From positions 323,493 through 387,492 of the forward strand of contig NZ_PZOX01000005.1 in assembly GCF_003044305.1 (NCBI RefSeq): 64,000 bases of DNA, read 5' to 3'. The stretch's first letter is position 1. Each line of letters begins with the position of its first letter. The position numbers and the translations under genes are program-made. The notes below the pieces were generated by a model, which worked only from the letters and a program-made list of their open reading frames with translations, was not told the origin of the DNA and did not search any database. Shown here one piece after another: positions 3,132 to 53,766 of this stretch. The stretch is from Vitiosangium sp. GDMCC 1.1324 (GTDB lineage Bacteria > Myxococcota > Myxococcia > Myxococcales > Myxococcaceae).

Positions 3132-3866
3132 TCACACCTCGAGCAGCAGGAAGCGATGCTCGGGGCGCATCTTCGTCATGAGCGGCATCGCCACGTTGTA
3201 GACGGGGATGCCGCTCTTCGTCTTTCCGGCGGGCGAACCGTGGTGCGCGTGGCCGTGGAAGACGGCCTCCGCTCCATAGTGGTCCACCGGCATCGCCAGA
3301 CGGCTCGTCCCGAGAAAGGGGCGGATCTCGATGTTCTCGCCCTCCAGCGTCTCCGGCACCGGGGCGTAGTGCATGATGACCACCTTCTTCGGCGTGTCGA
3401 GGTGGCTGAGCGCCGCTTCCAGCTTGAGCGACTCGTGCACCGCCTCCTGCACGAAGGACTTCGTCTGCCCCTCGCCAAAGGCCTGCAGCGTGGCGTTGCC
3501 GAAACCACCGCCGAAGCCCTTCACCCCGGCCACGCCCAGCGTCTTCTCGAAGATGAAGTGGTCCCCATCCAGGATGTGTACCCCCACCCGGGACAGCTCG
3601 CCGCAGATCTCCTTCCACTGGTTGTGCTCGTAGTCATGGTTGCCGAGCACCGCCGCCACCGGCACCCGCAGCGCCGCCAACTCCTCGGCGAGCACCTTGC
3701 CCTCCTCCACCATCCCCCGATCCGTCAGATCTCCGCACAGCACCAGCATGTCCGCTTCCGCGTTGACCTGCTTGACGAGCTGGCGGAACCGTCCGTGCTG
3801 ATCATCCCGGCAGTGGAGGTCACCGACCGCCGCCAACCGTATTTTCGAGTTCGCGTCCCGCGCCAC
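3132..3866 (-). CDS. metallophosphoesterase (calcineurin-like phosphoesterase, YfcE/Vps29-like)
   Basis: Motifs AAVGDLH, LCGDLTDRG, GNHDYE and GHAHH. Start placed at the GTG preceded by GGGGGAGG. The track ORF extends to 3914, which would overlap the upstream gene by 95 nt. Confidence 0.7.
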   Translation of the reverse strand: MARDANSKIRLAAVGDLHCRDDQHGRFRQLVKQVNAEADMLVLCGDLTDRGMVEEGKVLAEELAALRVPVAAVLGNHDYEHNQWKEICGELSRVGVHILDGDHFIFEKTLGVAGVKGFGGGFGNATLQAFGEGQTKSFVQEAVHESLKLEAALSHLDTPKKVVIMHYAPVPETLEGENIEIRPFLGTSRLAMPVDHYGAEAVFHGHAHHGSPAGKTKSGIPVYNVAMPLMTKMRPEHRFLLLEV

Positions 3867-4677
3867 GTGCCTCCCCCTTCTCTCGCTCTCGCTCGTCCCA
3901 GCACCGTCCGTCACCGAAGCCCCAGTGGTGGATGTCCACCGTGTAGTTCACCCTCGAGATGAGGTTGCCGCGGCACAGCCGCTCGTCCCAGTTGCCCTCC
4001 TTGAGGGTGTCCAGCGTGCGCGACATGAGCTCCGTCATCAGCCACACGGGGATCAGATCCCTCTCGCACGGGTAGGCGAAGCGGAACATCATCAGGTGGC
4101 TGAGCAGCACTTCCCAGTACCGGTCGAAGCGCCGCAGCAGCCGCTCCCAGTCCATCCCCTTCCCCATCTTGAGGATGAGGTGGTTGATGTCCGCCCCGTC
4201 GTACCGCTCGCGCTCGTTCACGAAGGCCTTGGACCAGATCATCTCCTCGGTCGGTGCCACCAGGCAGCGGTGGCCGAAGACGGAGGCCGAGCGCGCGTGG
4301 ACGAACCACTCGTCATCCACCGTGGCCACTCCGTTGCCGGAGGAGAAGATGAAGTCCACAAAGTATTCGCCCCGGAAGGCCTTGTAGAGCCATACGTCAT
4401 CGGTGCGCTCGGTGCGCCAGCCGTCCGCCTCCAGCACCACCAGCGCCCGCTCCGCGTCGCGCTTGCGGGGAAAGAGATCCAGGTCCTTCGTGTCCCGGTA
4501 GATGCCCGTATACGTGGCGTAGGCATAGGCCCCACCCACGAGGAAGGGCACACCGGCGTCCAGCAACACCTCGATGGCCCGGCCCCGGGCGTTGATCTCG
4601 TCCGCTGTCCGGCACCGCTCGGCGAGCGAGGCGTCGATTCCCATCTCCCCGGGGTGGTTGGGGTGGCGCTTTTCCAT
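3820..4677 (-). CDS. Pol-beta-superfamily nucleotidyltransferase-fold protein (NTP_transf_5-like), function unknown
   Basis: Motif LVGGAYAYATYTGIYRDTKDLDLF (G[GS]...DxD) plus a later acidic residue (VDFIF). Trp/Phe-rich C-terminal half and normal composition. The antisense plus-strand ORF is R/H/P-rich junk. Confidence 0.6.
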   Translation of the reverse strand: MEKRHPNHPGEMGIDASLAERCRTADEINARGRAIEVLLDAGVPFLVGGAYAYATYTGIYRDTKDLDLFPRKRDAERALVVLEADGWRTERTDDVWLYKAFRGEYFVDFIFSSGNGVATVDDEWFVHARSASVFGHRCLVAPTEEMIWSKAFVNERERYDGADINHLILKMGKGMDWERLLRRFDRYWEVLLSHLMMFRFAYPCERDLIPVWLMTELMSRTLDTLKEGNWDERLCRGNLISRVNYTVDIHHWGFGDGRCWDEREREKGEARGAGRELENTVGGGR

Positions 4678-4890
4678 GCGGCAAACCTAGGAACGGGTCC
4701 TTTTTCCCGTCGGAGCCCCCGTCCGGTATGCCTGGAGGGCAACCAGGGGACTTCCAAGGGCTCGAAACTCCCGGGGTTTCGAGCCTCCGAAAATCGCCTT
4801 TTCTGTTTTTGGACCCCTGCTGTGTCCCTACGGGCGAACGACCCGCAACGGCCTGAAAGGGACCGGGCGGACACCCGAGAGGACCGACAC

Positions 4891-5892
4891 ATGACGTTCC
4901 GCAAGAGCCTGCTGATCTCCGCGCTGATGCTGGTGGGCTGTGGCCGTATGAGCCGTGAGGACGAGTTCCGCGCCGTGCTGCCGACGCAGGAGATGGTGGC
5001 GGTGAAGACGCCCGAGAAGAGCGGCCAGGCGCTGATGGCGGAGGGGACGGGTGCGCAGTCCGGACAGAACCAGCTGAGCGACCTCTACGTGCTGACCCGC
5101 GTCACGACCGTGGTCGTCAATGGCGGCACGCTGGCGGTGCTGGGCCTGGTGGACGCGGTGACGAAGTACCCGCCCACCTCCGTCACCAACGACACCGCGG
5201 TGTGGGGCCCGCACACCGAGGCGCTCGCCCGCAACACGTGGAAGCTCACCGTGAAGAAGACGGGCGACCACACCTATAGCTATGCCCTCTCGGCCAAGGC
5301 GAAGGACGCGGCGGACTCGGCCTTCGTGGACATTGTCACCGGCACCCATACCGCCTCGCTGGACGCGGCCGGCGAGCCCATGAAGGGCTTCGGCCAGGGT
5401 GAGTTCAAGCTCGACTGGGACAAGGCGGCGACGCTGCCCGAGCACGACAACAACGTGGGCTCCTTCTCCGTCAAGTACTCGCGCCTGGACGACAAGAGCA
5501 CCGCCACCGTGGACGCGAGCTTCCGTCAGATAAAGGACGACAAGGACAGCAGCAAGCGCGTGGACGCGGACTACCGCTACGCCGCCACCCCGGGCCAGGG
5601 CGGCCAGTTCGACTACAAGCTGAACCAGGACTGGTACAAGCCCGAGGGCTCCAGCTCCGCCGCCCCGGAGACCCTCACCATCAAGAGCCGCTGGCAGGAG
5701 ACGGGGGCCGGCCGCTCGGATGTCAAGCTGGCGGGCGGAGACCTGGGCACCGAGGAGGCCACCGCCAGCGAGTGCTGGAACGCCTCCTTCGCCAGCGTGT
5801 ACCTGCGCGCCAGCTACACCTTCCCCCAGGTGCGCTACGGAACGGAGAACACTGACTGCGCCTTCACCCCGGCGGTCTACTCCTCGCTGTAG
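4891..5892 (+). CDS. lipoprotein (myxobacterial family; C-terminal VWGP...ECWNASF motifs)
   Basis: ATG at 4891. MTFRKSLLISALMLVGC carries a lipobox (LVGC). Lys/Asp/Thr-rich mature part. Paralogous to the 8845..9804 lipoprotein. Confidence 0.75.
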   Translation: MTFRKSLLISALMLVGCGRMSREDEFRAVLPTQEMVAVKTPEKSGQALMAEGTGAQSGQNQLSDLYVLTRVTTVVVNGGTLAVLGLVDAVTKYPPTSVTNDTAVWGPHTEALARNTWKLTVKKTGDHTYSYALSAKAKDAADSAFVDIVTGTHTASLDAAGEPMKGFGQGEFKLDWDKAATLPEHDNNVGSFSVKYSRLDDKSTATVDASFRQIKDDKDSSKRVDADYRYAATPGQGGQFDYKLNQDWYKPEGSSSAAPETLTIKSRWQETGAGRSDVKLAGGDLGTEEATASECWNASFASVYLRASYTFPQVRYGTENTDCAFTPAVYSSL

Positions 5893-5944: not shown

Positions 5945-6484
5945 GTGGCAGGAACGACCCAACCGGCCCTGAAGGTCATCGACGGAGGTCAGAAGGATCG
6001 GCGCGCGTTCCTGCGCGAGCTGTACACGGTCCATGGCGGCAGCGTGTACGGGCGCTGCCGCTATCTGTTGAAGGACGCGAGCAAGGCCGAGGACGCGATG
6101 CAGGAGGTGTTCGCCCGCGCCCTCACCCACTCGGACGCTTTCCGCGCGGAGACCTCGCCGCTGGCGTGGTTGATGAAGATCGCCACCCACCACTGTCTCA
6201 ACCAGCTGCGTGCGGAGCGGGCTCCGTGGAGGCGCTGGTTCGAGCGGGACGAGAAGGCCCGTCCGGAGGGAGACCGGGGCGCGCAGGCGATGGAGACGCG
6301 GGAGCTGGTGCGCTCGCTCCTGTCGAAGGTGGACCCGGAGACCCAGGCGGCGGTGGTGCATTACTGGGTGGACGGGATGACGCTGGAAGAGGTAGCAGCG
6401 CTGCTGGAGCGCTCTGTCCCCACGGTGCGCAAGCGGCTGGAGCGGTTCGCCGCCCTGACGAATGAGGAGTTGAAGGTCCCATGA
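5945..6484 (+). CDS. ECF (sigma-70 family, group IV) RNA polymerase sigma factor
   Basis: Region 2 (FRELYTVHGGSVYGRCRYLL...DAEDAMQEVFARAL) and region 4 HTH (MTLEEVAALLERSVPTVRKRL). About 179 aa. AGGAAG ribosome-binding site before the GTG start. Confidence 0.85.
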   Translation: MAGTTQPALKVIDGGQKDRRAFLRELYTVHGGSVYGRCRYLLKDASKAEDAMQEVFARALTHSDAFRAETSPLAWLMKIATHHCLNQLRAERAPWRRWFERDEKARPEGDRGAQAMETRELVRSLLSKVDPETQAAVVHYWVDGMTLEEVAALLERSVPTVRKRLERFAALTNEELKVP

Positions 6485-7233
6485 GCGCGCACCTGTCGGA
6501 ATGGACGCTGCGGCGGCTGCATGCCGGAGAGCTCCCGGGCGCGGAGTCCCAGCAGGCCCGCGCGCACGTGGCCGCGTGCGCGGAGTGCCATGGGGTGCTC
6601 AAGGGCCTCGAGTCGGACCAGGCCCGCTTCGAGGCGGAGGTTCCCTTCGACCGCTTCGCGGCCGGCGTGGAGCGCGCGCTGAAGAATCCATCGGAGGAGA
6701 ACTCGTCGCCGCGGTTCCACGGCTTCATGGTGGCGGTGGCGGCCACGGTGCTGCTGGCATTGCTGGTCCGGCCGATGCTGTCCGAGCCGCCCACCAACCG
6801 GCTCAAGGGCGGGGCCTCGGCGGAGCTGCGCATCGGAGGCGAGGGGCCGCAGCGCGCCGTCATGCCGGGCGACACCGAGTCGCTCCTTCAGGGCGAGCGG
6901 GTGCGGGTGGGGTATGTGCCGGGAACGTACCGGTACGTGATGACGGTGTCGGTGGACGAGGCCGGCGAGGTGTCTCCGCTCTACTCCCAGGCGGGGATGA
7001 GCCTTCCCGTGGAGGAGGGCGCCACCGTGCGGCACTGGCTGCCCGAGAGCGTGGTGTTCACCGGCTCCGGCTACGAGCGCGTGGTGGTGGTGCTCTCCGA
7101 GAGGCCCCTGGAGGTGGAGACGGTGAGAGAGGCGGCGCGTCGGGCCTGGGAGTCCGCGGGCGGTAATGTCTCGGCCATGTCCTCGCTGGGCGTGGACGGA
7201 GAAGAGAGTCACTGGCTCCTGCGCAAGCCATGA
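6481..7233 (+). CDS. anti-sigma factor, zinc-finger (HxxxCxxC) type with a single TM helix
   Basis: ATGA overlap with the sigma-factor stop. N-terminal HVAACAECH zinc-binding motif. Single TM segment (FMVAVAATVLLALLV) followed by a periplasmic C-domain. Confidence 0.8.
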   Translation: MSAHLSEWTLRRLHAGELPGAESQQARAHVAACAECHGVLKGLESDQARFEAEVPFDRFAAGVERALKNPSEENSSPRFHGFMVAVAATVLLALLVRPMLSEPPTNRLKGGASAELRIGGEGPQRAVMPGDTESLLQGERVRVGYVPGTYRYVMTVSVDEAGEVSPLYSQAGMSLPVEEGATVRHWLPESVVFTGSGYERVVVVLSERPLEVETVREAARRAWESAGGNVSAMSSLGVDGEESHWLLRKP

Positions 7234-8831
7234 GGCGCGCTCCCGCTCATGGCCAGGCGTTGGTCCTGGCGCTACTGCTGGCGGCGGCCGTGCAGGCCCA
7301 GCCGGTGCGCCGCTTCGCGCTGGTGGCGGGCAACGACGAGGGCGGCTCGGACACCCGGACGCTGCGCTTCGCCCGGGACGACGCGCGCAAGATGCACGGC
7401 CTCCTCGTGCGGCTCGGTGGCGTGGCACCCGGTGACGAACGGCTGCTGCTGGACAAGAGCGCGAAGGACTTCCTCCAGGCACTCACTGAATTGGAGACAG
7501 GCGCACAGGCGGCACGCGCTCGGGGCGAGCGCACCGCGCTCATCGTCTACTACTCGGGCCATGCGAAGGACGGCTCGCTGCGGCTGGGGGACAGCACGCT
7601 GGACCTCGAGGCGCTCAAGCGCCGGTTGTCGGCGGCACCGGCGGACATCCGCATCGCCATCCTGGACTCGTGCCGCTCGGGGGCACTCACTCGGACGAAG
7701 GGAGCTCGGCGCGCGCCTGCCTTCGCCATCGACGCGGGCGCCACGCGCGAGGCCCGGGGGCTCGTCATCCTCACCTCCAGTTCGGCGGACGAGGACTCAC
7801 AGGAGTCGGACCTGCTGGGCGGCAGCTACTTCTCCCACCACCTGGCCAGTGGACTGATGGGGGACGCGGATCGCTCGGGCGACGGACAGGTGACGCTCTT
7901 CGAAGCCTATTCCCATGCCTACGCCCGCACCGTGGCGGACACCGCGGACAGCAGCGCCGGGCCCCAGCATCCCACCTTCAGCTATGACCTGGCCGGCAAT
8001 GGCGACCTGGTGCTGACGGATCTGCGAGGGCGTGACGAGGGCCTGCTGGTGCCCCGCACCGCGCCCGCCGGGGCCTATTACTTCGTGAGCCCGGGTGGCC
8101 TCGTGGTGGCGGAGCTGGACAAGGCCGTGGACACCGAGCGGCGCCTGGGCCTGGCCCCGGGCACGTACACGGTGAAGCGGCGGATGCCGGATCGGCTGCG
8201 CATCGGAGAGGCCGAGGTCCGGCGCGGGCGCACCACGGTGCTCGACGAGTCGCAGCTGCGCGACGCACCGTTCTCCGATGATCCGGTGAAGGGCGTGCCG
8301 CCCCAGCCGCGCGCGCTTCGCACGTACTGGACGCTGGGGCTCGCCGGTGGCTACCACTCCTTCTTCGACGCGCCGACGCGCGAGAACCTTTTCCTCTCCA
8401 CGCCGCTGCTGGGCCTGGAGGTGGGACTGCACCACTACTTCCGCGAGAACTGGCGCTGGGACTTCGACCTGTCGCTGGGCGCGCGCCAGGCCACGCTGGA
8501 GCTACCGACCCTCTCGGGGCCACGCTACCGCTACTCGCTGCTGACCGTGGGCACCTCGTTGGTGGCCGAGTGGCCCTTCGGCCCCGTGGCCCCCTTCGTC
8601 GGCGTGCGGCTCGCCTATCTCCTCACGGGCCGGGACTTCGAGGACCCGAGCCTTCCAGACCAATTCTACGCGGTGCTCACGCCCGGCCTCGTGGGTGGCG
8701 TGCGCTGGCACATGTCGGAGCACTTCGAGCTCACCGGGCGCGGCCGCGTCCACTACCTTCTCTACAACGTCGACGCACAACGCTCCCTGGGGTACTGGGA
8801 ACTCGGGGCGCTCGTGACGTACCGCTTCTGA
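7230..8831 (+). CDS. secreted caspase-family (peptidase C14) protein fused to a C-terminal outer-membrane beta-barrel domain
   Basis: ATGA overlap with the anti-sigma stop. Signal peptide (ALVLALLLAAAVQAQP). Caspase His/Cys dyad (IVYYSGHA ... ILDSCRSGA). C-terminal ~190 aa with alternating hydrophobic strands ending in YRF, an OMP-type terminal aromatic. Confidence 0.75.
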   Translation: MRRAPAHGQALVLALLLAAAVQAQPVRRFALVAGNDEGGSDTRTLRFARDDARKMHGLLVRLGGVAPGDERLLLDKSAKDFLQALTELETGAQAARARGERTALIVYYSGHAKDGSLRLGDSTLDLEALKRRLSAAPADIRIAILDSCRSGALTRTKGARRAPAFAIDAGATREARGLVILTSSSADEDSQESDLLGGSYFSHHLASGLMGDADRSGDGQVTLFEAYSHAYARTVADTADSSAGPQHPTFSYDLAGNGDLVLTDLRGRDEGLLVPRTAPAGAYYFVSPGGLVVAELDKAVDTERRLGLAPGTYTVKRRMPDRLRIGEAEVRRGRTTVLDESQLRDAPFSDDPVKGVPPQPRALRTYWTLGLAGGYHSFFDAPTRENLFLSTPLLGLEVGLHHYFRENWRWDFDLSLGARQATLELPTLSGPRYRYSLLTVGTSLVAEWPFGPVAPFVGVRLAYLLTGRDFEDPSLPDQFYAVLTPGLVGGVRWHMSEHFELTGRGRVHYLLYNVDAQRSLGYWELGALVTYRF

Positions 8832-8844
8832 CAGGGAGCACACG

Positions 8845-9804
8845 ATGCGGACCTCCTGGCTCCTCCTCCTGGGCTGCCTCGCCACCGCGTGCGGTGGGAA
8901 CCTCTCCAACGACGACCTCGAGTTCTTCAACGCATTGCCGATGCGAGAGGACCTGGCTTCCAAGCTGCCCGGGAGCGAGCGCTCCGCCAGCGGGGGAGGC
9001 CTGCGCCAGCGCTCGGACCTGTTGACGCTGGGGGCTCCCTCGGAAATCTACGTGGAGACGCGCGCGGCGTCGGACACGTTCAACCAGGGGATGGATGGGC
9101 TGCTCACCGTGCTGGAGGAGATCCGCAAGCTCCCGCCGACGACGCGCGGACCGGATTACCGCGTGTGGGGACCCTGGCCGGACGAGCAGCATCCCGGCCA
9201 CGAGGTGCGCTTCCTGATGGTCCGCGACGCGAACACCTTCGGCTACCAACTCCAGTTCCGGCCCAAGGGCTCCGGCGAGGAAGGGTGGTGGTCCGCCCTG
9301 GAGGGAACCTTCCAGGCGGACGGAGGGCTGCGCAAGGGCACGGGCGCGGTGCGGGTACTCGTCAAGGAGACGAAGGCCCACGGCTTCGACATGGGGTCTC
9401 TGTCGGGGATGGACCTGTTGGAGATCGTCTATCAAACGCGGGCGCTGCCCATCAGCGTGCGGATGCGCTTCGTGCCCGCCTCCACCCAGGCCGCGTCGGA
9501 GATCCTCTACGCGTACCGCGAGATTCCCGGGGGCCTGGGGGAGATGGGGTTCGTGCTCCAGGACACCGACCTGATCCCCGGGACACAGAAGGAGGATCTG
9601 ACCATCCTCAGCCGGTGGACGCGGGACAGCGGGGGCGTAGGAGTCATCTCGGTGACGGGCGGAGACGTTCCCGCGGGCTTCACGTGGACCCAGATCGAGT
9701 GCTGGGATGCCAGCTTCCGCCTCACCTACCTGAAGCAGAGCTGGGAGACGGCGGCGATAGGCAACGCCTCCGCCTGCCCGGACGTGTCCGCGCTGGAGAA
9801 CTGA
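8845..9804 (+). CDS. lipoprotein, paralog of the 4891..5892 product (RVWGP... and ECWDASF motifs)
   Basis: MRTSWLLLLGCLATAC lipobox. Sits 13 nt after the caspase gene on the same strand. Shares the C-terminal motif TQIECWDASFRLTYL with 4891..5892. Confidence 0.75.
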   Translation: MRTSWLLLLGCLATACGGNLSNDDLEFFNALPMREDLASKLPGSERSASGGGLRQRSDLLTLGAPSEIYVETRAASDTFNQGMDGLLTVLEEIRKLPPTTRGPDYRVWGPWPDEQHPGHEVRFLMVRDANTFGYQLQFRPKGSGEEGWWSALEGTFQADGGLRKGTGAVRVLVKETKAHGFDMGSLSGMDLLEIVYQTRALPISVRMRFVPASTQAASEILYAYREIPGGLGEMGFVLQDTDLIPGTQKEDLTILSRWTRDSGGVGVISVTGGDVPAGFTWTQIECWDASFRLTYLKQSWETAAIGNASACPDVSALEN

Positions 9805-12671: not shown

Positions 12672-12923
12672 ATGGCTCGCGTCACAGTCGAAGACTGCCT
12701 CCCCCTGGTCGACAACCGCTTCGCGCTCGTGCTGCTGGCGGCCAAGCGCGCCCGTCAGCTCATGGCCGGCGCCCGCCCCATCATCGACACCTCGAAGAAC
12801 AAGCCCCCCGTGCTCTCGCTGCGCGAGGTCGCCACCGGCCGGGTGAAGTTCGACCGGGACGTGCGCGAGGCCCTCACGGGCAAGTACTCGCAGAACGAGC
12901 CGCCGAAGGCCAACGCCAGCTAG
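12672..12923 (+). CDS. rpoZ: DNA-directed RNA polymerase subunit omega
   Basis: [30 protein letters not shown] is the canonical RpoZ N-terminus. 83 aa. ATG at 12672. Confidence 0.85.
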
Positions 12924-13399
12924 TCCCCGGAGCCCTCCGGACGCACTCCGGAGAGGGCGAGGGTGGCCCCCGCGCGCAGCAGCATCCTGGCCGCTCGCGC
13001 GGCAATGGCCTTCTCGCCCTTGTAGCCCAGCAGGGCCGCCACCCGGGCGAGCGGTACCCAGCGCGTCTCGTCCACCTCCACCCGGTGTCCCTCGTGCTGG
13101 ATGTCTCCCAGCACCCCGGACTCGTGGCGGAAGAGGAAGAAGTGGACGCGCTTGAAGATGCGCTGTCCGCGGAACTGGTAGACGTAGCGGATCTCCCCCA
13201 GCGGCGCGACGAGCGTGGCCCTCAGGCCCGTCTCCTCCCACACCTCACGTACGGCCGTCTGCTCGGGCGACTCCCCGGGGTCCACATGCCCCTTGGGAAG
13301 CGCCCACAGGGAGCGGCCGTGGGGCCGGATGACGGCCACCTCCAGCTCGCCCCCCTGTTCTCGGACGACAACTCCTCCAGCGGAGGCCTCACGGGGCAT
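12920..13399 (-). CDS. NUDIX hydrolase
   Basis: Nudix box [23 protein letters not shown] (GX5EX7REVXEEXGU). Confidence 0.85.
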
Positions 13400-53693: not shown

Positions 53694-53766
53694 GCGGTGG
53701 TAGCTCAGTTGGTAGAGCACGAGCTTCCCAAGCTCGGGGTCGAGGGTTCGAATCCCTTCCGCCGCT
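53694..53766 (+). tRNA. tRNA-Gly (anticodon CCC)
   Basis: Cloverleaf with acceptor GCGGTGG/CCGCCGC (one G-U pair). D-arm GCTC-AGTTGGTA-GAGC. Anticodon loop TTCCCAA. T-arm GAGGG-TTCGAAT-CCCTT. Discriminator U. 73 nt. Confidence 0.85.

Follow-up and report, generated by a model that had tools for sequence, protein, structure and literature searches.

A caspase homologue with a predicted outer-membrane barrel in a putative ECF sigma factor operon of myxobacteria

Introduction

Why should a caspase homologue that carries a signal peptide be encoded immediately behind a sigma factor of the extracytoplasmic function (ECF) type and its anti-sigma factor? The question is raised by a cluster of co-directional genes in a 64,000-nucleotide stretch of DNA from Vitiosangium sp. 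GDMCC 1.1324 (RefSeq contig NZ_PZOX01000005.1, positions 323,493 to 387,492 of the forward strand), which is referred to below as the window and from whose first letter all coordinates are counted. The original prediction, made from the letters of the window alone, described four genes at 5945-9804, encoding an ECF sigma factor, a zinc-type anti-sigma factor, a secreted caspase fused to a beta-barrel and a lipoprotein, and suggested that they form a cell-surface signalling or regulated-proteolysis module.

The caspase homologue is here placed in what is probably a five-gene operon and is predicted to be anchored in the outer membrane, its protease domain most probably lying in the periplasm. 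The activation loop behind its catalytic cysteine carries the same conserved basic motif, R-x-K-G, as the juxtamembrane segment of the anti-sigma factor, which makes the caspase homologue a natural candidate for the site-1 protease of its operon partner. That it is the dedicated site-1 protease of this anti-sigma factor, within a self-activating ECF module, is put forward as a tentative answer to the question, and one that could well prove wrong.

The sigma factor and the anti-sigma factor

The gene at 5945-6484 (+ strand, GTG start, 179 aa) encodes an ECF (group 4) sigma factor of the sigma-70 family. Its product matches Sigma70_r2 (53.5 bits, E 2e-14) and Sigma70_r4_2 (33.6 bits, E 3e-8), both over the Pfam cut-off, and TIGR02937 with 75.9 bits against a cut-off of 42.9. 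Orthologues are 59-91% identical across 80 related loci, which were drawn from species-representative genomes (caspase identity to the window protein 55-90%) and cover Archangium, Cystobacter, Myxococcus, Corallococcus, Pyxidicoccus, Hyalangium and Citreicoccus together with Myxococcales and 'Polyangia' metagenome-assembled genomes. A homologue search with the sigma factor returned generic database names only, and caspases are not mentioned in the main text of a paper on ECF classification (PMC7826278).

The product of the next gene (6481-7233, + strand, 250 aa) is, by its sequence, a single-pass anti-sigma factor with a cytoplasmic zinc-motif domain, one transmembrane helix, a probable DUF4384 domain in its periplasmic part and a C-terminal tail that ends in K-P; binding of zinc and of the sigma factor is predicted. 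The zinc-binding (ZAS) motif H29-x3-C33-x2-C36 (6565-6588, + strand) was read from an alignment of 38 orthologues that shows no variation at C33 and C36 and at least 90% conservation of H29. The window protein itself has a weak zf-HC2 match, at 18.9 bits under the cut-off of 22.2, and 32 of the 38 orthologues, each scanned separately, match this family. The best PDB profile matches are to the N-domains of DdvA (E 0.04) and ChrR, both weak. Hydropathy places the single hydrophobic transmembrane segment at residues ~81-100. The zinc anti-sigma assignment of the original prediction is thus borne out by the conserved HxxxCxxC motif; what it had overlooked is the probable periplasmic DUF4384 domain (PF14326), matched in this part of the protein by 32 of the 38 orthologues (best E 7.7e-6). 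DUF4384 is a recurrent accessory domain of cyanobacterial orthocaspases.

Almost all of the anti-sigma orthologues also end in a hydrophobic-x-K-P carboxy terminus, with K249 invariant and P250 at least 90% conserved. A tail-specific or PDZ protease might recognise this terminus as a tag.

The caspase-barrel protein

The third gene of the triad (7230-8831, + strand) encodes 533 aa, and 1632 homologues of its product were found. The caspase alignment and an AlphaFold2 model were built on 52 sequences; the mean predicted local distance difference test score (pLDDT) of the model is 79. The protein begins with a signal peptide, residues 1-23 (7230-7298, + strand), that lacks a lipobox and for which the A-x-A rule suggests cleavage at A-V-Q-A/Q-P (the slash marks the bond); hydropathy gives a hydrophobic segment at residues 8-26.

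The N-terminal domain is a Peptidase C14 caspase homologue, with proteolytic activity predicted from its conserved residues. The caspase (p20-like) domain occupies residues ~26-251 (7305-7982, + strand), the Pfam match to Peptidase_C14 covering residues 27-251 at 40.1 bits against a cut-off of 21.4 (E 4e-10); all 52 homologues match the family, and Pfam finds no CHAT or TPR domain in the protein, only Peptidase_C14. His111 (7560-7562, + strand) and Cys148 (7671-7673, + strand), the catalytic dyad, are invariant in the 52 homologues and were also found, reading by eye, in distant relatives. The SGH and DSCxSG motifs align with those of yeast metacaspase-1, the only sequence relative in the PDB (E 0.0025), and a Foldseek search of the PDB with the N-terminal part of the model returned procaspase-6 and metacaspase-9. 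The secreted C14 caspase with a His/Cys dyad that was originally proposed is therefore upheld by an above-threshold Pfam match and by an invariant H111/C148 pair. Metacaspase-type enzymes cleave after Arg or Lys (PMC3501461), and by analogy Arg/Lys specificity at P1 and autoprocessing are expected of the present C14 homologue.

The caspase domain is followed by a middle domain (residues 260-346; 8007-8267, + strand) whose strand pattern, at block-mean pLDDT values of 81-91, is that of a beta-sandwich; it has no Pfam family match. A possible identity of the sandwich with DUF4384, which would have allowed homotypic docking with the anti-sigma factor, was rejected (hhalign E 0.28, probability 0.2). 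At the junction of sandwich and barrel the alignment shows a conserved linker, F-S-D-D-P-V-K354-G355 (8271-8294, + strand), in which F348, D351, P352, V353, K354 and G355 are invariant across the 52 sequences. It falls in a low-confidence stretch of ~16 residues (347-362) between the two domains, with the low-pLDDT segment at 353-362. Four distant relatives have a basic-Gly pair at the same place. To see K354-G355 as a release site is speculation.

The C-terminal region (residues 366-533; 8325-8828, + strand) is predicted, from the AlphaFold2 model and Foldseek, to be an 8-stranded OmpA-like barrel and to act as a minimal outer-membrane anchor. Block-mean pLDDT is mostly above 90 along the strands, two 10-residue blocks standing at 74 and 66; one of the two faces is hydrophobic and the other polar in most strands, and all connecting loops are 4-12 residues long. 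Foldseek matches in the PDB include OmpA, NspA, Ail, OmpX and OprF (E 2e-9 to 2e-6; template-modelling (TM) scores on the target 0.64-0.75; probability 1.0 for OmpA, NspA, Ail and OmpX), OmpA (1bxw) having a TM score of 0.75 to the barrel. A fragment comprising barrel and sandwich of the window protein has no Pfam match, including OMP_b-brl and OmpA_membrane, and OMP_b-brl weakly matches 2 of the 52 homologues (E 0.025). Since the Pfam barrel models barely match, the kinship to OmpA-type proteins is at the level of fold only. The HMM searches that had been suggested as a check thus gave Peptidase_C14 above its cut-off and no OMP_b-brl match in the window protein. The original prediction had foreseen a barrel of ~190 aa ending in YRF; the ending is correct and a barrel is predicted, albeit a slightly shorter one of 168 aa. 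The last residue in the 52 homologues is L in 35, P in nine, F in seven and M in one. With its signal peptide and its terminal F, the window protein has the two end signals expected of outer-membrane barrels, the second being a hydrophobic or aromatic beta-signal.

Barrels of 8 strands of the OmpA type keep both ends of the chain periplasmic, and no passenger domain, whether folded or not, can pass through so narrow a structure. Because the present barrel has 8 strands and short loops like the N-domain of OmpA, in which both termini are periplasmic, the caspase domain and the sandwich most probably hang into the periplasm, tethered under the outer membrane and facing the anti-sigma factor. No 12-stranded barrel, helical linker or plug was seen in the model and no autotransporter among the Foldseek matches. 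Of the earlier proposal that the protease is displayed at or on the outer membrane, the anchor is retained as a prediction, but surface display is unlikely for a barrel of 8 strands with loops of 4-12 residues.

A basic motif in both the caspase homologue and the anti-sigma factor

In all 52 caspase homologues the motif R-x-K-G occurs exactly 7 residues past the catalytic Cys, as R155-T-K-G158 in the window protein (7692-7703, + strand). It lies in a loop, residues 150-191, that is modelled with low confidence and predicted to be disordered, yet contains invariant residues. The position behind the catalytic Cys is that of the intersubunit linker at which caspases and metacaspases process themselves, and by analogy with that linker R155-T-K-G158 is a candidate autoprocessing site. 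The window caspase contains two K-G dipeptides only, both invariant: the one in this motif and K354-G355 in the linker.

The same motif occurs in the anti-sigma factor as R107-L-K-G110 (6799-6810, + strand), in the periplasmic juxtamembrane segment. R107, K109 and G110 are at least 90% conserved among the 38 orthologues; R-x-K-G stands 5-21 residues past the transmembrane helix in 34 of them, and three of the other four keep K-G. Its sequence and position make R107-L-K-G110 a candidate site-1 cleavage site. R-x-K-G was also read by eye in both proteins of four strongly diverged triads, for example as RDKG in both proteins of locus L082. The background frequency of R-x-K-G, crudely estimated, is ~1.4e-4 per residue.

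The operon and its promoter-like motif

All four open reading frames of 5945-9804 are present on the + strand exactly as first described, and the letters themselves show two ATGA stop/start overlaps (6481-6484 and 7230-7233) and a 13-nucleotide gap, CAGGGAGCACACG, before 8845. The unit was taken to consist of these four genes; it has five instead. A lipoprotein gene at 4891-5892 (+ strand, 333 aa), 52 nucleotides from the sigma gene, comes first, and the lipoprotein gene at 8845-9804 (+ strand, 319 aa) is the last cistron. A convergent gene ends 16 nucleotides past the last stop codon of the unit, and G+C content is uniform (0.68-0.72) across the region. Because the sole conserved promoter-like motif stands 5' of the 4891-5892 lipoprotein gene, the unit is probably a five-gene operon with a conserved, autoregulated promoter.

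This motif, TTTCTGTT-N14-GTGTC (4800-4826, + strand), is bipartite, lies 91 nucleotides 5' of the first gene and matches once in the 64-kb window, where no match is expected by chance. In most of the 67 loci that hold the upstream region it is found 50-125 nucleotides 5' of the first lipoprotein gene, within flanks that vary; in four loci that lack the upstream lipoprotein gene it lies 164-233 nucleotides 5' of the sigma gene. It is a candidate for an autoregulated ECF-dependent promoter that would be recognised by the operon's own sigma factor. A sigma-70-type promoter and a + strand terminator were sought between 4500 and 10100, and none was found.

At 4827-4890, downstream of the -10-like element, the conserved block runs on, reading GTGTCC-AT/CT-A-GGGGCGAA in many loci, and a G+C-rich inverted repeat follows it in the leader of ~65 nucleotides before the first start codon. 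The block and the repeat may represent a start-site region or a leader structure.

Both flanking proteins are, from their sequences, bacterial lipoproteins, for which sorting to the outer membrane seems likely. They are paralogues (28% identity over 315 aa, E 2e-21), so that the paralogous downstream lipoprotein noticed in the original prediction has its partner in the product of 4891-5892. The lipobox of the upstream protein is LVG-C, its Cys conserved in 35 orthologues, and the protein has no Pfam family match. That of the downstream protein, A-C-G-G, is conserved in 36 orthologues with C16 invariant, and the mature protein would begin C-G-G-N-x-S-N-D-D-L. The downstream protein is 100% identical to a database entry, named hypothetical, of Vitiosangium sp. 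GDMCC 1.1324, a member of the Archangiaceae. An AlphaFold2 model of the downstream lipoprotein (pLDDT 85) consists of a long helix and a meander sheet of ~13 strands and has no significant neighbour in the PDB. An exposed basic-Lys-Gly loop (R163-K-G165) is found on the two conserved lipoproteins.

Conservation and breadth of the family

The order lipoprotein, sigma factor, anti-sigma factor, caspase, lipoprotein, on one strand, is kept across the 80 loci in every one with enough flanking sequence, bar four in Cystobacter fuscus and Archangium minus (L010, L011, L012 and L056) that lack the first lipoprotein gene. Independent gene calls for Myxococcus sp. NMCA1 give the same five genes. Since the same gene order recurs in related loci, the arrangement is not a chance one, and the synteny check proposed at the outset gave a positive answer, homologues of the caspase gene being linked to ECF sigma genes. 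The original prediction had itself named what would count against it: a C-terminal region that is no barrel, a dyad absent from alignments, or homologues never linked to ECF sigma genes. A barrel is predicted, the dyad is invariant in the alignment and the linkage is there.

A profile search of 1.8 billion cluster representatives gave 15,337 relatives of the caspase homologue at E <= 1e-3 and 2,727 at E <= 1e-30, the latter from Myxococcota wherever the source names an organism. Many relatives are 520-565 aa long and cover the whole profile; others, of 650-830 aa, have the caspase domain and sandwich in common and a different C-terminus. The genomic context was read for seven distant members. 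In five of them a sigma gene (158-195 aa) is followed on the same strand by a gene for a protein of 243-294 aa and then by the caspase gene, and one adjoins a divergent ECF sigma operon. Weak DUF4384 matches were obtained for two of the four middle proteins scanned from distant triads, and one distant locus also holds a homologue of the downstream lipoprotein. From this context the triad of sigma factor, anti-sigma factor and caspase appears to be the conserved core, and the paired lipoproteins a feature of a sub-clade.

Further variants were seen in passing. Cystobacter fuscus Cbf 10 has two copies of the module (L010 and L011) on one chromosome. In longer paralogues of 795-834 aa (L084:6001-8505, L086:5001-7388 and L086:7526-8758) the small barrel is replaced by a long Gly/Gln-rich repeat region (G-x-Q-x-x-x-G-x-N...) and a terminal segment ending W-P-G-(F/V)-x-x-G-(I/L)-(Q/R)-I; the next gene of L086 (410 aa) encodes the same repeats and ending with no protease domain. 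A second caspase paralogue (L062:2373-3368, - strand; 36% identity over 337 aa) lies divergently and immediately 5' of a five-gene module. A complete five-gene module with 69% caspase identity is found in a record titled 'Comamonas sp. KCTC 72670 / JC664' (L028, BNCN01000006.1; protein P0058); every other named match is from Myxococcota, and this record may be mislabelled or contaminated.

Proposed regulation of the sigma factor

In the mechanism proposed here, the single-pass anti-sigma factor with its zinc motif would hold the sigma factor at the inner membrane, and the protease would be made as a zymogen, exported and inserted by its barrel into the outer membrane. An envelope signal would lead to self-processing at R-T-K157/G, 7-10 residues past the catalytic Cys, after which the protease would cut the anti-sigma factor at R-L-K109/G outside the membrane helix (site-1), with DUF4384 as a possible docking domain. 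A site-2 protease would then free the sigma factor, which would transcribe the whole operon from the motif at 4800-4826 in a positive feedback. The two paralogous lipoproteins would probably be outer-membrane partners that either sense the signal or restrain the protease. The term regulated-proteolysis module, used in the original prediction, is on this evidence the best hypothesis, and we infer no more than that.

Several observations weigh against this scheme, whose mechanistic steps are all inference. R-x-K-G is short, and its presence in two proteins is suggestive, not statistically compelling; its variable residue shows no co-variation between caspase and anti-sigma factor. The candidate site lies 5-21 residues from the inner membrane and the outer-membrane tether has ~16 residues, so that contact may need a change in envelope geometry or release of the anchor. 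By Pfam, the periplasmic fragment of the window's own anti-sigma factor is not significant for DUF4384. The -35-like half of the promoter-like motif is not the usual GGAAC and lacks the AAC typical of ECF promoters, and one of the seven distant members has no sigma gene nearby. Finally, co-transcription fits a protease that is a product of the regulon equally well.

That last point leads to the alternative that survives best, to which a minor but real chance is given: the sigma factor would not be activated by the caspase-barrel protein but would drive its expression and that of the lipoproteins. The protease, induced by stress and at work in the periplasm, would serve envelope quality control, developmental remodelling or cell death, and either a different protease or the direct binding of a ligand to DUF4384 would inactivate the anti-sigma factor. 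A single promoter-like motif for five genes implies that all would rise together on induction, and with no second copy of it in the window the main regulon may be the operon itself. Effector genes are often found in ECF operons, and a role in developmental autolysis was proposed in a 2012 survey (PMC3501461). What this alternative leaves unexplained is why the triad stays together in very diverged lineages although the genes around it change, why a caspase-associated domain is present on the anti-sigma factor, and why the same R-x-K-G occurs in the anti-sigma factor and the protease loop. Were the protease a regulon product only, nothing but its effector would set the locus apart from other conserved ECF operons.

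A more far-reaching version of the preferred mechanism, in which the caspase is likewise the protease of the anti-sigma factor, is distinctly unlikely as a whole. It would make the operon a trans-envelope proteolytic switch of a sort not described before, in which the periplasm and the two lipoproteins separate the caspase zymogen on the outer membrane from the anti-sigma factor on the inner one. Envelope damage or developmental remodelling would bring about a possible self-release at K354/G and then the R-x-K/G cut, and DUF4384 would be a domain at which caspase-type proteases in general dock or find a degron. If true, it would unite the present family with craspase/Csx30 and with many fusions of DUF4384 to proteases.

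Contact signalling in the style of FecA-FecR-FecI is improbable. Here the outer-membrane protein and the lipoproteins would sense a signal and hand it on by binding to DUF4384 of the anti-sigma factor, and the caspase would process the lipoproteins or other clients, an idea to which the exposed R163-K-G165 loop of the lipoproteins lends itself. The parts for it are indeed there, namely a predicted protein of the outer membrane whose N-terminal module would lie in the periplasm, and an ECF sigma factor with its anti-sigma factor in the inner membrane, but a barrel of 8 strands with such short loops offers no obvious surface receptor or channel, there is no TonB box or plug domain, and the invariant dyad argues that proteolysis is central.

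A surface-displayed protease that acts on external substrates in the manner of an autotransporter would suit a protein that begins with a signal peptide and closes with a barrel whose last residue is aromatic, but is very improbable: the barrel has 8 strands like those of OmpA, OmpX, NspA and Ail and not the 12 of type V systems, is preceded by a linker of ~16 residues with no helical plug, and belongs to a class too narrow for passenger export. Least credible of all is an anti-phage or abortive-infection system resembling the caspase/CHAT conflict systems, for which a weak match to the NCBIfam model 'caspase, EACC1-associated type' (57 bits, where the cut-off is 140) and the precedents of craspase and DdvS/DdvA (control of CBASS-CRISPR) can be cited, but which is made unlikely by the lack of a PADLOC match to any of the five proteins and by a conserved core-genome neighbourhood with no variable island and no adjacent defence genes.

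Relation to known systems

The nearest model for the preferred mechanism is the RpoE/RseA/DegS-RseP system of E. coli, with which it would have in common a periplasmic site-1 cut of a single-pass anti-sigma factor, a site-2 protease and an autoregulated operon. DegS is an inner-membrane-anchored serine protease with a PDZ domain that is activated by the C-termini of outer-membrane proteins. In the present operon the candidate protease is instead a cysteine protease on the outer membrane, and no recognisable RseB-like protein is encoded. Orthocaspases and metacaspases, such as Microcystis MaOC1 and yeast Yca1, resemble the caspase-barrel protein in their C14 fold and in both active-site motifs, SGH and DSCxSG, but the known ones are cytoplasmic or soluble, without its signal peptide and barrel anchor. 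To our knowledge, no caspase homologue with a signal peptide and an outer-membrane barrel anchor has been characterised.

Two other systems bring a caspase-like protease together with an ECF sigma factor. The M. xanthus anti-sigma factor DdvA has a zinc motif and a periplasmic CHAT domain, and self-cleavage before the action of RseP has been proposed for it (PMC11506125). DdvS/DdvA (PMC11506125, PMC6061681) resemble the present pair in phylum, in the zinc-bound anti-sigma domain, in the single transmembrane helix and in a periplasmic His/Cys protease of caspase fold that is proposed to start proteolysis of the anti-sigma factor. DdvA, however, unites anti-sigma factor and protease in one polypeptide anchored in the inner membrane, the protease part being of CHAT type with TPR repeats. 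The present C14 protease is encoded separately and predicted to sit in the outer membrane, and its partner, the anti-sigma factor, probably has a DUF4384 domain instead. The caspase-like protease of craspase is Csx29, which is of the CHAT type; its substrate Csx30 is a binding partner of an ECF sigma factor and in some cases has a DUF4384 C-terminal domain (bioRxiv 10.1101/2022.08.17.504292). The type III-E CRISPR system (Cas7-11-Csx29 with Csx30/Csx31/RpoE) is thus alike in that a caspase-like protease cuts a sigma-bound, anti-sigma-like protein, a cleavage that for the present operon is only proposed; it differs in being cytoplasmic, triggered by RNA, of CHAT type and encoded in a CRISPR locus, none of which holds here.

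The linkage of sigma factors to metacaspases is itself on record. Asplund-Samuelsson et al. (2012) noted that predicted operons with sigma factors of the sigma-70 family hold four of the five metacaspases of M. xanthus, that the same structure occurs in Anaeromyxobacter, Haliangium, Sorangium, Ralstonia and Fibrobacter, and that such operons might be linked to developmental cell death, without further analysis (PMC3501461). Theirs are loci of the same kind as the present operon. The linkage is mentioned there in passing, with no experiment, and the survey is silent on the anti-sigma factor, DUF4384, the barrel, the lipoproteins, the promoter motif and R-x-K-G. The view that this is not a described system therefore needs amendment as to the linkage, reported in 2012, and stands in so far as the literature search found no functional study. 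A search for ECF sigma factors, anti-sigma factors and caspases in Myxococcus returned only the work on DdvA and a review noting CHAT domains near ECF54.

Database names of the five proteins are generic, except for two orthologues of the caspase, named 'ActD' in Stigmatella aurantiaca (UniProt Q08XS8, P0075) and 'ActD-like' in M. fulvus HW-1 (P0129). The M. xanthus gene actD is part of the operon actABCD, by which C-signal production is timed (PMC4320627). The act operon is a different locus, since its first genes encode a response regulator and a sigma-54 activator and not an ECF pair. No domain description of M. xanthus ActD was found in the literature; the protein may be a paralogue of the present caspase, perhaps the fifth M. 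xanthus metacaspase.

What is new here is a separate C14 caspase predicted to be tethered to the outer membrane, together with a concrete candidate cleavage motif; protease-controlled ECF sigma/anti-sigma modules as a kind were already known. Control of ECF sigma factors by caspase-like proteins is a recent finding, with craspase/Csx30/RpoE in 2022 and DdvA in 2024, both of CHAT type, and the present locus suggests a third version. If R-x-K-G is a cleavage site, DUF4384, a widespread domain of unknown function, would gain a role, a prokaryotic caspase homologue would gain a defined physiological substrate, and myxobacteria would have a testable route by which the state of the outer membrane and periplasm is reported to transcription. 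A direct test of the model is within reach, since M. xanthus, with four such operons, is amenable to genetics.

Flanking genes

The genes directly 5' of the operon are common to Vitiosangium and Myxococcus sp. NMCA1 and encode an ABC transporter, a DUF4340 protein, a metallophosphoesterase and a nucleotidyltransferase; further 3', rpoZ, NUDIX and groES/EL genes are common to Vitiosangium and Myxococcus. The genes for the RNA polymerase omega subunit (rpoZ, 12672-12923) and the NUDIX hydrolase (12920-13399, - strand) lie ~3 kb 3' of the operon, as in Myxococcus. The single Rfam match in the window is a tRNA at 53694-53766. On the - strand, the longest open reading frames of the metallophosphoesterase (3132-3914) and of the NTP_transf_5 nucleotidyltransferase (3820-4677) overlap by 95 nucleotides; the corresponding genes called in Myxococcus sp. 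NMCA1 overlap by 17 nucleotides only, so the true start of the downstream gene of the pair is probably internal.

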